Shown: positions 9,372-44,470, numbered from the stretch's first letter. The stretch is 64,000 nt of DNA from Clostridiales bacterium (GCA_012521375.1 JAAYMO010000109.1:1291-65290); one strand, 5' to 3'. The notes: generated by a model not told the origin, from the letters alone. Translations and numbers: made by a program.

Positions 9372-9418
9372 TAATAAAAGTCCATCTGTTTTGGCAATAA
9401 TTGCTCTACAGATGGACT
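9372..9418 (-). terminator. Intrinsic terminator of the aor leader, overlapping riboswitch P1
   Basis: Transcript AGTCCATCTGT-18 nt-ACAGATGGACT-TTTATTA; the first 4 nt belong to the P1 3' strand. Confidence 0.75.
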
Positions 9419-9500
9419 CCTTTGCACAATGGCAGGTATGGGCATTTCTACCCATGCCCTATCGTTCCAAGTCCTTTTCGGGCTCCTTGGAATCGGAGTC
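9415..9500 (-). ncRNA. Moco/Tuco (Wco) riboswitch no. 1, upstream of the aor operon
   Basis: Transcript GACTCC-GAT-TCCAAG..CTTGGA-ACGAT-AGGGCATGGGT-AGAAAT-GCCCATACCT-GCCATTGTGCAAA-GGAGTC; P1, P2, P4 with AGAAAT loop and P5 like the Moco RNA motif; no P3. Confidence 0.85.
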
Positions 9501-9850
9501 TATATATAGTTAAAAGTCATACATTTAATTAACTATTCTACATATATTTGCCAAGTCCTTTTAATATGACTAAAATATTTGAAAATTTTTTAAATTTTAT
9601 TTACTTATATTTAAATTTATTAAATGAGAAGGTAAACTAAATATGTATATGAAAAATATGTAGATTTTATAAAAATATTGTGGCAAAATGTAAGCTGTAT
9701 AATTTATGATTTAATAAATCAAGTTTTGATGAAAAGGGATAAGCATATAAAAGGTATTGGTGTGGACATGCTTATAACATTTGAAATGAGAAATGCAAAT
9801 ATTAAATAAAATATTTAAGCTTATTCAGTGAGGTATTAGGAGGTCATAGT

Positions 9851-10690
9851 ATGGGTAAAAAAATATGTATGGTTATTTTTTTATTATTGCTATTATTAAA
9901 AGTTCCATATGTTTATGCCGAAGCAAATGAGGTTTCAAAACTATCGGATATAACAGCGGAGCAGAAAGTAGTAGTACTTATGTATCATCATGTATTGCCA
10001 AATCAGCTCAATAAGTATTATAGAAACAATTCTGCCGTAATTTCATTAGAGGCTTTTAAAGAACAAATGAAATATTTATATGATAATGATTATAATATAA
10101 TTACTATCAGAGAATTAGAGGAATTTATATATTACAAAAGACCGTTACATAAATCAAAAAATAACACCAGTGTATTAATAACGTTTGATGATGGCTATCT
10201 CAGCAATTATATTTGGGCCTATCCAGTACTCAAAAGCTATGGGTTTAAAGCCACAGTATTTTCTATCACATCCCATATTCCAAAAAAAAGTATAGAAGTA
10301 ATAAATCCTGATAAGCTTGAAAAAATCAGCTACGAACAGATGGTAGCCACAAGGGATGTATTCGATTACGAAAGCCATAGCCATGCATTTCATAAAAAAG
10401 ATCATAATAATGTTTCATATATAGTATCCATGAACAAAGATGAAGTAATGGAAGACTTGCAGATATCAATAAATAAGCTTGGCTCTTCTAAATACTTTGC
10501 TTATCCATATGGAGAATATAATGAAGAAACCATAGATGTCCTGGAAATATTAGGTTTCAAGCTGGCTTTCACAACTAAACCAGGATATATCAACCATGAT
10601 AATCATCCATACCATCTGACTAGATTTGCCATAACCCCTTTCACTTCATTAGAACAATTTAAGAAGATAATGAATCTAAATGACTTATGA
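9851..10690 (+). CDS. Exported polysaccharide deacetylase (CE4/NodB, PgaB/IcaB-like)
   Basis: Signal peptide; VLMYHH, LITFDDGY, ESHSHAFH, FAYPYG motifs. Confidence 0.9.
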   Translation: MGKKICMVIFLLLLLLKVPYVYAEANEVSKLSDITAEQKVVVLMYHHVLPNQLNKYYRNNSAVISLEAFKEQMKYLYDNDYNIITIRELEEFIYYKRPLHKSKNNTSVLITFDDGYLSNYIWAYPVLKSYGFKATVFSITSHIPKKSIEVINPDKLEKISYEQMVATRDVFDYESHSHAFHKKDHNNVSYIVSMNKDEVMEDLQISINKLGSSKYFAYPYGEYNEETIDVLEILGFKLAFTTKPGYINHDNHPYHLTRFAITPFTSLEQFKKIMNLNDL

Positions 10691-10890
10691 TTCAAAGTGT
10701 ATGGGTATAAACACAATAGATGAAATAAGATAAATTTTTGATATAAAAATTATAAGTATGACAAGCTGTAGAAGATACTTCTTTTATCATTAGATTGTGT
10801 TATGATATTAATAAAAACTGAGTAATTAAATTTCCAACATAATGAATAGAAATAATAATATATATTTCGTGATGTTGAGGAGAGTTTTTT

Positions 10891-11307
10891 ATGAAACTAG
10901 AAAAATCATGCGGAGCTATTGTTTATAGAAGGATAAATAATAATATAGAGTTTTTGGCTATTAAAAGCAATTCTCCGGGAGGCCATTGGGGTTTTCCAAA
11001 AGGCCATGTTGAAGAAGGAGAAACGGAAGAGGAAACAAGTATAAGAGAGGTGTATGAAGAAACAGGCTTGATCATTAAGCTTTGTAAAGGCTTTAGAGAA
11101 TACGATAAATACCAAGTATCTGAGAATACATATAAGGAAGTTATTTTCTTTATTGCTGATGCAATGGATCAAAATGTTGTGATAAATGAAGATGAGGTAG
11201 TAGAATATCGATGGGCCTCATTTGATGAGATATATGATATATTGACTTATGACAGTTCCAAAAACATATTAAAAAAAGCAAAGGAATTTGTTGAAAGACA
11301 GTGTTAG
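10891..11307 (+). CDS. NUDIX hydrolase (Ap4A hydrolase-like)
   Basis: Nudix box GHVEEGETEEETSIREVYEETG preceded by WGFPK. Confidence 0.9.
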   Translation: MKLEKSCGAIVYRRINNNIEFLAIKSNSPGGHWGFPKGHVEEGETEEETSIREVYEETGLIIKLCKGFREYDKYQVSENTYKEVIFFIADAMDQNVVINEDEVVEYRWASFDEIYDILTYDSSKNILKKAKEFVERQC

Positions 11308-11349
11308 GTGGTAATATATTAATTTATCATATACTAAGGAGGGATAAAA

Positions 11350-43046: not shown

Positions 43047-43129
43047 ATCCTCCAATAAGAATATTTACTAGTAATTGTAATCACAGTTATTGTGATAAAT
43101 GTGGATTAAAAATATTCTTATTGGAGGAT
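43047..43129. repeat. Perfect 20-bp inverted repeat with an inner palindrome, after ileS
   Basis: ATCCTCCAATAAGAATATTT (43047-66) / AAATATTCTTATTGGAGGAT (43110-29); inner ATCACA-GTTAT-TGTGAT (43080-96). Confidence 0.8.
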
Positions 43130-43244
43130 TTATTATATCCATTTACTTGTATATTTAAGTTGGCTCATTATGATTGTTTATAATGATATTATTGGATCTG
43201 AGCAGTATAATAATAGGTAAAGATTTGTTATGGAGGTAATTGTT

Positions 43245-43748
43245 TTGGATAGGTTAACACATATAAATGAAAAAGGTTATGCAAGGATGGTAGACGTTAC
43301 AGAAAAAACGGAGACTATCAGAGAAGCTGTGGCTCATGGTTCTATTTATATGAAAAAGGCTACCATAAGAGCTATCCTGGAGGGAAAAATAAAAAAAGGG
43401 GATGTGTTATCTGTAGCTCAGGTAGGCGGGATAATGGGAGCAAAGAGCACTTCTGATATAATACCTATGTGCCATAATATAAATATCTACGGTGCAGATC
43501 TGGAGTTTTCAATAGATGAGGAAAACTGTAAGATTGATATATTTGCCACAGTTAAGACCTATGGAGTAACCGGGGTTGAAATGGAAGCTTTGACAGCTGT
43601 ATCTATTGCAGCACTTACTATTTACGATATGTGCAAGGCCATCGATAAAGAAATGATTATATCAGATATATATATTGTGAAAAAAACAGGAGGAAAATCA
43701 GGGGATTTTTATTTTAGCGGAACTGATAGAAAAAATTCATGCAGCTAA
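43245..43748 (+). CDS. moaC: Cyclic pyranopterin monophosphate synthase
   Basis: LTHINEKGYARMVDV, IPMCH, TGVEMEALTA, YDMCKAID, KKTGGKSG; TTG start after GGAGGT. Confidence 0.95.
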   Translation: MDRLTHINEKGYARMVDVTEKTETIREAVAHGSIYMKKATIRAILEGKIKKGDVLSVAQVGGIMGAKSTSDIIPMCHNINIYGADLEFSIDEENCKIDIFATVKTYGVTGVEMEALTAVSIAALTIYDMCKAIDKEMIISDIYIVKKTGGKSGDFYFSGTDRKNSCS

Positions 43749-43769
43749 GATCATAAGGAGGTAGCAGTA

Positions 43770-44312
43770 TTGATGAATGATGGGTTTACATTTACTGTAG
43801 GAATTATCACTGTCAGCGACAAGGGTTTTAGTGGAGAGAGGATAGATGAATCAGGGCCTGTGATAGAAGAATTATTAAAACCTGTAGGAGGTATTATAAA
43901 AAAGTACATAATAGTGCCGGATGAGAAAAAAGAAATTAAAAAGGCAATGCTAGAAATGTCAGATATCATGAAGATTGACTTAATATTGACGAGTGGGGGA
44001 ACAGGCTTTTCTCCTCGTGATATAACTCCAGAAGCCACTCTGGATGTCATAGAAAAGAATGTGCCAGGAATACCTGAAGCTATGAGAGCTGAAAGCCTTA
44101 AGATAACTCCTAATGCTATGCTGTCTAGGGCTGTGGCTGGGATCAGAAATAAATCCTTGATTATAAACTTGCCTGGAAGCCCTAAAGGGGTGAAAGAGTC
44201 TCTGAATGTAATCCTTCCTGCATTAAAGCATGGTATAGAGATTCTTAGGGGTGAAGCATCGGAATGCGCTACAAATCCCATTTCTCCAAGGACCATAGAT
44301 TCAGACTCATAG
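43770..44312 (+). CDS. moaB: MogA/MoaB-family molybdopterin adenylyltransferase
   Basis: ITVSDKG...DESG, VPDE, TSGGTGFSPRDITPEAT, LSRAVAG, NLPGSP. Confidence 0.88.
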   Translation: MMNDGFTFTVGIITVSDKGFSGERIDESGPVIEELLKPVGGIIKKYIIVPDEKKEIKKAMLEMSDIMKIDLILTSGGTGFSPRDITPEATLDVIEKNVPGIPEAMRAESLKITPNAMLSRAVAGIRNKSLIINLPGSPKGVKESLNVILPALKHGIEILRGEASECATNPISPRTIDSDS

Positions 44313-44370
44313 ATATATGCAGGAAATGTTATTGATAAAACTATAATATTATGCTAAGCTAATAGAGCAT

Positions 44371-44470
44371 GGTTTTCCGAGTTTAATTTTCTAAAGACAA
44401 GTTCTATGAAAATTAAGCCGTTGGGTTCCGGTAGAAATGCCGTAGCCTCCCGTGTTTGGAAAGGAAAACT
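44371..44470 (+). ncRNA. Moco/Tuco (Wco) riboswitch no. 4, upstream of tupBCA
   Basis: GGTTTTCC-GAG-TTTAATTTTC-TAAA..TAT-GAAAATTAAG-CCGTT-GGGTTCCGGT-AGAAAT-GCCGTAGCCT-CCCGTGTTTGGAAA-GGAAAACT. Confidence 0.9.

Follow-up and report, generated by a model that had tools for sequence, protein, structure and literature searches.

A stretch of 64,000 nucleotides (nt) from a Clostridiales bacterium (GCA_012521375.1, JAAYMO010000109.1:1291-65290), here called the window, carries four RNA leaders resembling the aptamer for molybdenum cofactor (Moco) or its tungsten counterpart (Tuco, also Wco), placed before genes for aldehyde ferredoxin oxidoreductase (AOR), an S-layer homology (SLH) protein, an energy-coupling factor (ECF) importer and a TupA-like tungstate transporter. 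The locus raises the question of whether these leaders form one regulon, whether they act on their genes in the same direction, and what such control says of the genes at 25-39 kb, which lie behind two of them. Our reading, which we hold to be very likely, is that they belong to a regulon of Moco/Wco riboswitches without the P3 helix, wired in two directions within one genome: predicted to switch on the AOR genes, and predicted to switch off the genes for tungstate uptake, pterin synthesis and the SLH protein.

The identity of the RNAs was settled by scanning the whole window against all Rfam families (cmscan, gathering thresholds). Four matches to RF01055 (Molybdenum/Tungsten riboswitch aptamer; cut 36 bits) were returned, with E-values from 5e-10 to 8e-19 and each covering model positions 1-135: riboswitch 1 (RS1; 9401-9510, minus strand, 53.6 bits), riboswitch 2 (RS2; 33769-33893, minus strand, 75.5 bits), riboswitch 3 (RS3; 39238-39356, minus strand, 76.2 bits) and riboswitch 4 (RS4; 44363-44482, plus strand, 83.7 bits, the top score of the four). 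A preliminary description of the window had proposed four Moco/Tuco aptamers without P3, and all four pass the family search; its P1-to-P1' cores fall inside the matches, while the strand, which it left unstated, is minus for three of the four. The P3 hairpin of the model is deleted in each of the four cmscan alignments, in agreement with that description, and P2 and P4 are joined by 2-4 nt. The shared order of helices that it had listed is likewise visible in an alignment of the eight RF01055 RNAs of this genome, as P1-GA-P2-CCG-P4(GGG..GAAA..CCU)-P5-AAAGG-P1'. RS2, RS3 and RS4 combine a GAAA tetraloop on P4 with a CUAA/CCUAA receptor in P2; RS1 has the GAAA loop on P4 and a P2 without the CCUAA receptor, and RS8, which lies outside the window, has a GCAA loop and no receptor, as Regulski et al. 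(2008; PMC2408646) describe for GCAA-loop Moco RNAs.

A P3-less covariance model (R1) was built from the eight RNAs, excluding P2, which MAFFT aligned inconsistently, and was used to find 54 related RNAs in which covariation was counted for helices P1, P4 and P5, with P2 not included. Paired cells amounted to 93%, against 77% after shuffling, and double changes occurred in 13 of 19 pairs. The covariation score of the three helices was 0.49, compared with 0.20 for shuffled alignments and 0.07-0.10 when partners were slid, and none of 500 shuffles reached the observed values; pairs in P2 can be seen in the cmscan alignments of the window RNAs. The four RNAs are therefore real, structured and true members of RF01055. 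One position within this conserved fold, the inner P5 pair (alignment columns 107:120; window 9425-9433 and 33795-33803), varies by gene context, being C-G in most RNAs, U-A before SLH-protein orthologues (including RS2) and in RS8, and G-C in the AOR-linked RS1, RS7 and L028:1-69; the difference could reflect inheritance among orthologous leaders, or a difference in tuning or specificity. Window positions 1162-1276 matched no Rfam family at gathering score.

Genome-wide (2.84 Mb, 308 contigs, 97% complete), there are eight RF01055 RNAs of 110-125 nt each, all P3-less, and the window holds half of them. The four others score 43.8-81.3 bits; P3 positions are deleted in three, and the alignment of the fourth, RS8, leaves no room for P3. 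They precede a second AOR gene, a MoaD-ferredoxin-AOR operon, a ferredoxin-hydrogenase-like gene and an SLH-Big_5-FecCD operon, and no P3-containing RF01055 riboswitch was found in the genome-wide search. Eight copies is the highest count in a sample of 150 genomes of the same class that were scored, 19 of which, including this one, have any. The window genes at 9.8-24 kb (formiminotransferase, RtcB, EamA, aminotransferase and others) are unrelated to pterin metabolism, and the four window leaders therefore head four separate transcription units and not one 35-kb island. Thus, where a cofactor regulon spanning 35 kb had been suggested, the regulon stands, and its extent has to be redrawn as eight leaders dispersed over the genome.

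The direction of each switch was judged from leader folding and a rule-based classifier, which took P1 from alignment columns and considered compact hairpins only. In RS1, the platform (9371-9420, minus strand) is an intrinsic terminator with U-tract, predicted to be ON: the 5' arm of the terminator, GGAGUCCAUCUGU, begins with the P1 3' strand GGAGUC, giving a 6-nt overlap with P1 and a stem of dG -20.4, and the shared bases make up the bottom of the stem, adjoining the U-tract. The other two AOR leaders of the genome, RS7 and RS8, have terminators of dG -20.1 and -24.2 that overlap P1 by 8 and 5 nt, respectively, and none of the three leaders has a separate antiterminator partner. A ligand-stabilised P1 and the terminator are mutually exclusive in these leaders, which therefore have the anatomy of ON switches. 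Binding of the cofactor would stabilise P1 and so engage the very 3' strand on which the terminator hairpin, at its U-tract end, is built; the terminator could then not form and the enzyme genes would be read.

A different arrangement is evident in RS2 and RS4, each of which has a separate terminator and antiterminator and is predicted to be OFF. In RS2 (platform 33742-33793, minus strand), the segment GAAAAGGAGU (33793-33784), which includes the P1 3' strand, is able to pair with the terminator 5' arm ACUUCUUUUC; the terminator, AAAAACUUCUUUU-CCAC-AAAAGAAGUUUUU followed by a U-tract, ends near 33742 and has a dG of -10.0, while the antiterminator duplex reaches -11.5 kcal/mol, a value matched by none of 200 shuffles. 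In RS4 (platform 44459-44526, plus strand), GAAAGGA, which spans the junction and P1 3' strand, is complementary to UCCUUUC in the terminator 5' arm and loop, the terminator being GAGUAAUCC-UUUC-GGAUUGCUU plus U-tract (dG -9.9) and the antiterminator duplex -9.3 kcal/mol, with one of 200 shuffles as good. The leader of the FecCD operon, RS6, is likewise OFF-type, with a separate terminator and an antiterminator duplex of -6.6 kcal/mol. Before the SLH gene and the tupBCA-moeA-moeA-moaA genes, the free P1 3' strand would thus pair with the terminator 5' arm as long as no ligand is bound, and ligand binding would release the terminator.

RS3 has no terminator: its P1 3' strand (39257-39251) abuts the Shine-Dalgarno (SD) sequence GAGGA (39251-39247), which is followed by the AUG at 39239-39237, so that control is probably exerted at the level of translation. 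It is probably an OFF switch reduced to acting on translation, and we take it as OFF because orthologous leaders, in loci likewise headed by the phosphodiesterase gene (L014, L015, L019, L028), carry OFF terminators with an antiterminator of -12.2 kcal/mol. These assignments reproduce those of the preliminary description, which had given an ON terminator to aor, OFF terminators to the SLH operon and tup, and a ribosome-binding-site-adjacent aptamer to the ECF operon.

The same division of platforms holds in relatives. RNAs were classified from 80 ECF S-component loci, from 28 loci found in a class-wide RF01055 search, from 14 further matches in the same genomes and from 80 metagenomic AOR loci; the genomes in this comparison are related, and the counts are therefore not independent. 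Among 17 AOR-linked RNAs, eight have an ON terminator, nine have no terminator and none has an OFF terminator, whereas among the 97 other RNAs the classifier called 73 OFF terminators, 19 leaders without a terminator and five ON terminators. The eight ON-type AOR leaders come from four genomes, and include two tandem pairs and one Proteiniborus metagenome-assembled genome, which belongs to a different genus; among these eight, the P1 overlap of RS1, RS7 and RS8 recurs in L028, L131 and L132, the latter two having two copies each, in tandem before AOR. All nine terminator-less AOR leaders have a strong SD 20-90 nt past P1. Four of the five ON calls away from AOR were rejected, since an antiterminator helix (AAAGGAAAC/GUUUCCUUU) is followed there by a U-rich terminator arm, which makes them OFF-type; the fifth, L103, before a TupB-like gene, is weak (dG -11.8). 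There is thus a clear contrast between the two sets of leaders, with OFF terminators absent before AOR and convincing ON terminators absent elsewhere.

Several observations weigh against the reading of a regulon wired in two directions, or narrow its reach. The switch directions are predictions from thermodynamic pairing only, and among the metagenomic AOR loci an RNA was found in just 8 of 80, all of them translational, which adds no further transcriptional ON cases. The SD of RS3 is unpaired in the consensus fold, and its direction is not readable from its own sequence; the hairpin of RS5 has no directly adjoining U-tract; and a riboswitch leader is present on only three of the nine AOR paralogues of the genome. 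Finally, the closest relatives (L013, L018, L020, L021, L023 and L027, including Lutispora saccharofermentans) have no riboswitch before the ECF operon in Rfam searches, also with filters off. At the corresponding position of L013 (5935-6039) there is a 20-bit remnant of RS3, and in Lutispora saccharofermentans (L020, 5820-5900) a relic-like sequence resembling P1-P2 but without the P4 hairpin. These sequences suggest that some lineages have lost the ECF-operon riboswitch by decay and retained that of the SLH gene.

A more fundamental objection would be that the predicted directions are wrong, and that all eight RNAs are ordinary OFF switches like that of E. coli moaA, the overlap of terminator and P1 before AOR being incidental. 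The only family member that has been tested is indeed an OFF switch (PMC2408646), and the 10-bp core of the RS1 terminator stem shares just 3 nt, GUC, with P1. However, the overlap recurs in all eight AOR-linked leaders that have a terminator, across the four genomes with their two tandem pairs and the Proteiniborus genome, and is absent from all 73 terminators that precede supply genes; the bases in common sit at the bottom of the stem beside the U-tract, which is needed for intrinsic termination; and an antiterminator partner is missing from the AOR leaders. We consider this objection quite improbable.

Which form of the cofactor is sensed is a separate matter. Regulski et al. (PMC2408646) found P3 missing in 58 of 176 Moco RNAs, noted that 17 of 19 organisms with P3-less RNAs have tungsten-cofactor genes, and reported such RNAs upstream of genes for molybdopterin (MPT) synthesis or tungsten enzymes, which agrees with the link between missing P3 and tungsten drawn in the preliminary description; in reviews published later by the same group, Wco figures as a riboswitch class of its own (McCown et al., 2017, PMC5473149; Sherlock et al., 2022, PMC9481103). 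Tungsten markers are present in the host, which has a TupA-like protein (265 bits) and nine AOR-family (AFOR_C) loci, one of them (C138:71803-73113) 6.5 kb past the end of the window. We infer that the ligand is the tungsten form of the cofactor.

The tungsten specificity of P3-less RNAs goes back to the gene-context correlation of 2008, which has exceptions (PMC2408646), and a rather unlikely alternative is that the aptamers are real without being tungsten-specific, and sense the molybdenum form, both forms or metal-free molybdopterin, reporting general pterin-cofactor status. Besides its AORs, the genome has three xanthine-dehydrogenase-family (MoCoBD_1) loci and two PF00384 loci, one with an in-frame TGA, the products of which may use the molybdenum form; because such proteins are present and a P3-containing riboswitch is absent, the aptamers may respond to both metal forms or to pterin without metal. 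The TupA score also lies below the equivalog cut-off. Against this, where an enzyme gene comes directly after one of the eight RNAs, it is always of the AOR family, that is, tungsten-type, no xanthine-dehydrogenase-family or PF00384 gene of the genome is near an RF01055 match, and the only transporter with a match to a named family is TupA/TupB-like.

The genes behind the four leaders were assigned by Pfam and NCBIfam matches. Operon 1 (3597-9311, minus strand), behind RS1, encodes a 4Fe-4S ferredoxin (start at 9311 or 9296), AOR (7027-8832), a MoaD/ThiS-like protein (6616-6909), NuoE-like (6138-6590) and NuoF-like (4340-6154) proteins and a 2Fe-2S/4Fe-4S protein (3597-4343), all on the minus strand. 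The ferredoxin start is ambiguous (window 9296-9351, minus strand), as a strong SD, AAGGAGGUGA (9350-9341), is followed by a GC-rich hairpin, and the only in-frame AUGs are at 9311 and 9296. Operon 4 (44539-51618, plus strand), behind RS4, encodes a TupB-like permease, an ABC ATPase, a TupA-like binding protein, MoeA, a fusion of MoeA with a periplasmic binding protein (PBP) domain, MoaA and a MOSC-domain protein. The only NCBIfam match of the binding protein (46001-46879, plus strand) is TupA, at the 265 bits mentioned above and with an equivalog cut-off of 400.

The two remaining units, both on the minus strand, occupy the 25-39 kb region. Unit 2, behind RS2, begins with an SLH-anchored protein of 1515 aa with Oxidored_molyb-like repeats (29104-33651), 3' of whose stop codon an 11-bp hairpin was read by eye (about 29052-29088). 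The distal genes of the unit encode a 253-aa lipoprotein with an Oxidored_molyb domain (28281-29042), a fusion of FMN_bind and Oxidored_molyb domains (26693-28270) and a NapH/NosR-like membrane protein with Fer4_5 and FMN_bind domains (25477-26673). Operon 3 (33938-39239), behind RS3, encodes an exported phosphodiesterase/pyrophosphatase of 322 aa (38271-39239, start AUG at 39239), a YkoE-like ECF S component (PF09819; 37700-38251), a small anchored Oxidored_molyb protein of 173 aa (37198-37719), two ECF ATPases (PF00005; 36458-37201 and 35851-36549), an ECF T component (PF02361; 35129-35854), MobB (TIGR00176, above cut-off; 34573-35076) and a RIO/Bud32-like kinase (33938-34591). The S component, the two ATPases and the T component are encoded together in consecutive overlapping genes, as in group I (dedicated) ECF transporters. 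PF00174, the Moco-fold domain, is found in five proteins of the 25-39 kb genes, which together with MobB provides domain evidence, independent of the riboswitches, for their assignment to pterin-cofactor metabolism. The preliminary description had made this assignment mainly from the shared control, and the occurrence of the riboswitch before ECF/Moco-fold orthologues in many genera, described below, strengthens that argument.

Divergent from the ECF operon lies the sole Rfam match in the window outside RF01055, a T-box leader (39665-39878, plus strand, 135 bits) that precedes a gene for an IleS-like class I tRNA synthetase of 1034 aa (39921-43025). The neighbourhood of IleS, T-box and ECF operon is kept in the Lutispora loci L015, L018 and L020.

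For the SLH unit, transcript data are available. The window DNA occurs in sludge and biogas-digester metagenomes and is present in two metatranscriptomes, contigs of which were placed on window 25001-45000, a range with RS1 outside it. Each metatranscriptome yielded one contig over the SLH gene (29050-33908 and 29052-33897), with a word depth of 48-50x, compared with 6-13 over the distal genes of unit 2, 2-6 over the ECF operon and about 0 in the RS3 region. The 5' ends of the contigs lie 4-15 nt upstream of the second aptamer, just past a likely promoter for the SLH mRNA (33921-33949, minus strand; TTGCAT, 17 nt, TATAAT), and their 3' ends fall past the 11-bp hairpin that follows the SLH stop codon. 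This fits an abundant mRNA with the riboswitch as its 5' leader that mostly ends after the SLH gene. These are strandless assembler contigs in which DNA carry-over is possible; the promoter was read by eye and its -35 element matches at three of six positions. Neither of these two elements, promoter or 3' hairpin, was picked up by simple scans for promoters and terminators.

What, then, do the SLH and ECF units do? Their predicted OFF wiring groups them with tungstate uptake and pterin synthesis among the supply functions. It is background to this question that enzymes of the sulfite-oxidase family ligate molybdenum through a conserved cysteine, and that exported molybdoenzymes use the twin-arginine (Tat) pathway, already loaded with cofactor. 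The exported proteins encoded by the two units all bear a Sec-type signal or an anchor, and a twin-arginine (RR) motif is missing from their N-termini. Cysteines are scarce: the FMN-Moco-fold fusion has none, the 253-aa protein only that of its lipobox, and the 1515-aa protein three for about seven repeats. Judging from these counts and the N-terminal sequences, neither the molybdenum-ligating cysteine nor a Tat signal is present in the PF00174 proteins, and a phmmer search with the Moco-fold proteins against PDB sequences returned no sulfite-oxidase match. Sec signals, the paucity of cysteine and OFF wiring therefore make these proteins look like binding modules rather than enzymes.

It could be argued instead that the two units encode extracytoplasmic cofactor-using reductases of a sulfite-oxidase or MsrP-like kind, fed by a NapH-like and flavinylated electron conduit, and that the riboswitch couples synthesis of the enzyme to the cofactor. 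Unit 2 has the components that such a system would call for, namely PF00174 domains, two FMN_bind domains and a Fer4_5 protein of NapH/NosR type, and its FMN_bind domain aligns to RnfG around the TGA[ST] flavinylation site. We nevertheless regard it as improbable, given that OFF-type wiring, the reverse of what the AOR enzyme leaders show, is seen here and for 73 of 97 non-AOR relatives, that the Moco-fold proteins are poor in cysteine and carry Sec-type signals without a twin-arginine motif, and that an ECF module of importer type, MobB and the kinase invariably accompany the cluster. Taken with this ECF module, the pyrophosphatase outside the cell, MobB and the kinase, the two units are most simply read as serving the acquisition of the pterin cofactor or a precursor, or possibly of the metal. 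The full proposal, in which one RNA class works in both directions in one genome and the set of Moco-fold surface proteins, ECF importer, MobB and kinase would capture and import an external molybdopterin-type cofactor or precursor, is put forward tentatively, and its chances fall somewhat short of even.

The gene set is found well beyond this genome. For the S component, 980 homologues were counted in the protein collection and 526 matches in the species-genome collection, in hosts that include Lutispora, Tissierellales, Proteiniborus, Pelotomaculum, Syntrophomonas, Alkaliphilus, Desulfosporosinus and Limnochordia. Gene order and RNAs were compared in the best 80 of the 526 loci. There, the core order of S component, small Moco-fold protein, A, A', T, MobB and kinase is kept, and it is usually fused with the unit 2 genes for Moco-fold, FMN and NapH-like proteins, which share its orientation and vary in order. 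Model R1 has 54 matches in the 80 loci, every one on the strand of the S component. In 36 loci an RNA lies upstream of the ECF cluster, and in nine it lies 4.3-4.4 kb downstream of the S component, before an orthologue of the SLH protein, as in the window; of four genomes checked in which the cluster runs off the fetched locus, three have RF01055 1-2.5 kb farther out. In L071, L073, L078, L079, L080 and L085, the ECF/Moco-fold cluster is headed by two P3-less riboswitches in tandem, spaced 150-270 nt.

Two leaders outside the window lie before further types of genes. On contig C69 (38000-47200; L009), a P3-less RF01055 RNA (L009 8669-8784, minus strand) with an OFF terminator heads a fifth supply-type unit, in which genes for SLH and Big_5 proteins are accompanied by those for a FecCD permease, an ABC ATPase and a Peripla_BP_2 binding protein, and by two others; a possible function is that of a type II ABC importer taking up tungstate, molybdate or a cofactor. 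A c-di-AMP riboswitch is located about 1 kb upstream of this unit (L005 2595-2728). On contig C161 (1-1059; L002), a P3-less RF01055 RNA precedes a HydA-like gene (Fer2_4/NADH-G/Fe_hyd_lg_C) that runs off the contig; the 5' arm of the hairpin after P1, AAACUCCUU, is complementary to the P1 3' strand, and a U-tract does not follow directly. "Ferredoxin hydrogenase" is among the listed contexts of Wco riboswitches (Sherlock et al., 2022; PMC9481103).

The RNA class and its P3-less subtype are already known biology. Like the E. coli moaA Moco riboswitch (RF01055; PMC2408646), the RNAs described here pass the same covariance model, form helices P1, P2, P4 and P5, share the CCUCCC...GGAAAGG core and, in RS2-RS4, the GAAA tetraloop with its CCUAA receptor, and are placed in the 5' leaders of cofactor genes; unlike it, they have no P3, use terminator platforms rather than occlusion of the ribosome-binding site within P1, and in some copies are apparently ON. 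They also resemble the Tuco/Wco variant (PMC2408646, PMC5473149, PMC9481103), being P3-less RNAs of a Clostridia genome with tupA-like and AOR genes, found before genes for tungstate transport, MPT synthesis, AOR and a ferredoxin-hydrogenase-like protein, each of which is a context given in these papers, and, in relatives, in tandem. They differ in that one 2.8-Mb genome has eight copies, and in two contexts that the papers do not name, an ECF importer operon and an SLH/Moco-fold surface protein; nor do the papers discuss ON wiring before AOR. A precedent for the ON anatomy is provided by the adenine pbuE (ydhL) riboswitch (Mandal and Breaker, 2004, cited in PMC9481103), in which the 3' strand of the closing helix is likewise part of the terminator stem, although the aptamer class is different here, the overlap is short (3-8 nt) and involves P1 only, and ON action is predicted. 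For operon 3, the nearest parallel is the group I ECF importer YkoEDC behind a thiamine pyrophosphate (TPP) riboswitch, which also places S (PF09819), A, A' and T in one operon behind a cofactor riboswitch; operon 3 differs in its Moco/Wco riboswitch and in its exported phosphodiesterase, anchored Moco-fold protein, MobB and small kinase.

In the literature searched, which included few subscription journals, we found no ON-type Moco/Wco platform and no use of the class in two directions in one genome, nor any link of an ECF transporter or Moco-fold surface protein to a Moco/Wco riboswitch, nor a bacterial uptake transporter for Moco. The set of surface proteins plus importer formed by the SLH and ECF genes is widespread and apparently undescribed.

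These findings suggest that the direction in which a riboswitch of this class is wired can provide a simple means of sorting genes of unknown function into users and suppliers of the cofactor. Both this criterion and the gene linkage, conserved across hundreds of genomes of anaerobes, assign the SLH/Moco-fold surface proteins and the ECF transporter to supply, which makes directly testable the long-standing assumption that bacteria cannot take up the molybdenum or tungsten pterin cofactor. The organism comes from sludge and biogas digesters, settings in which tungsten and molybdenum are given as supplements, and the regulon may therefore be relevant to how trace metals are managed in them.

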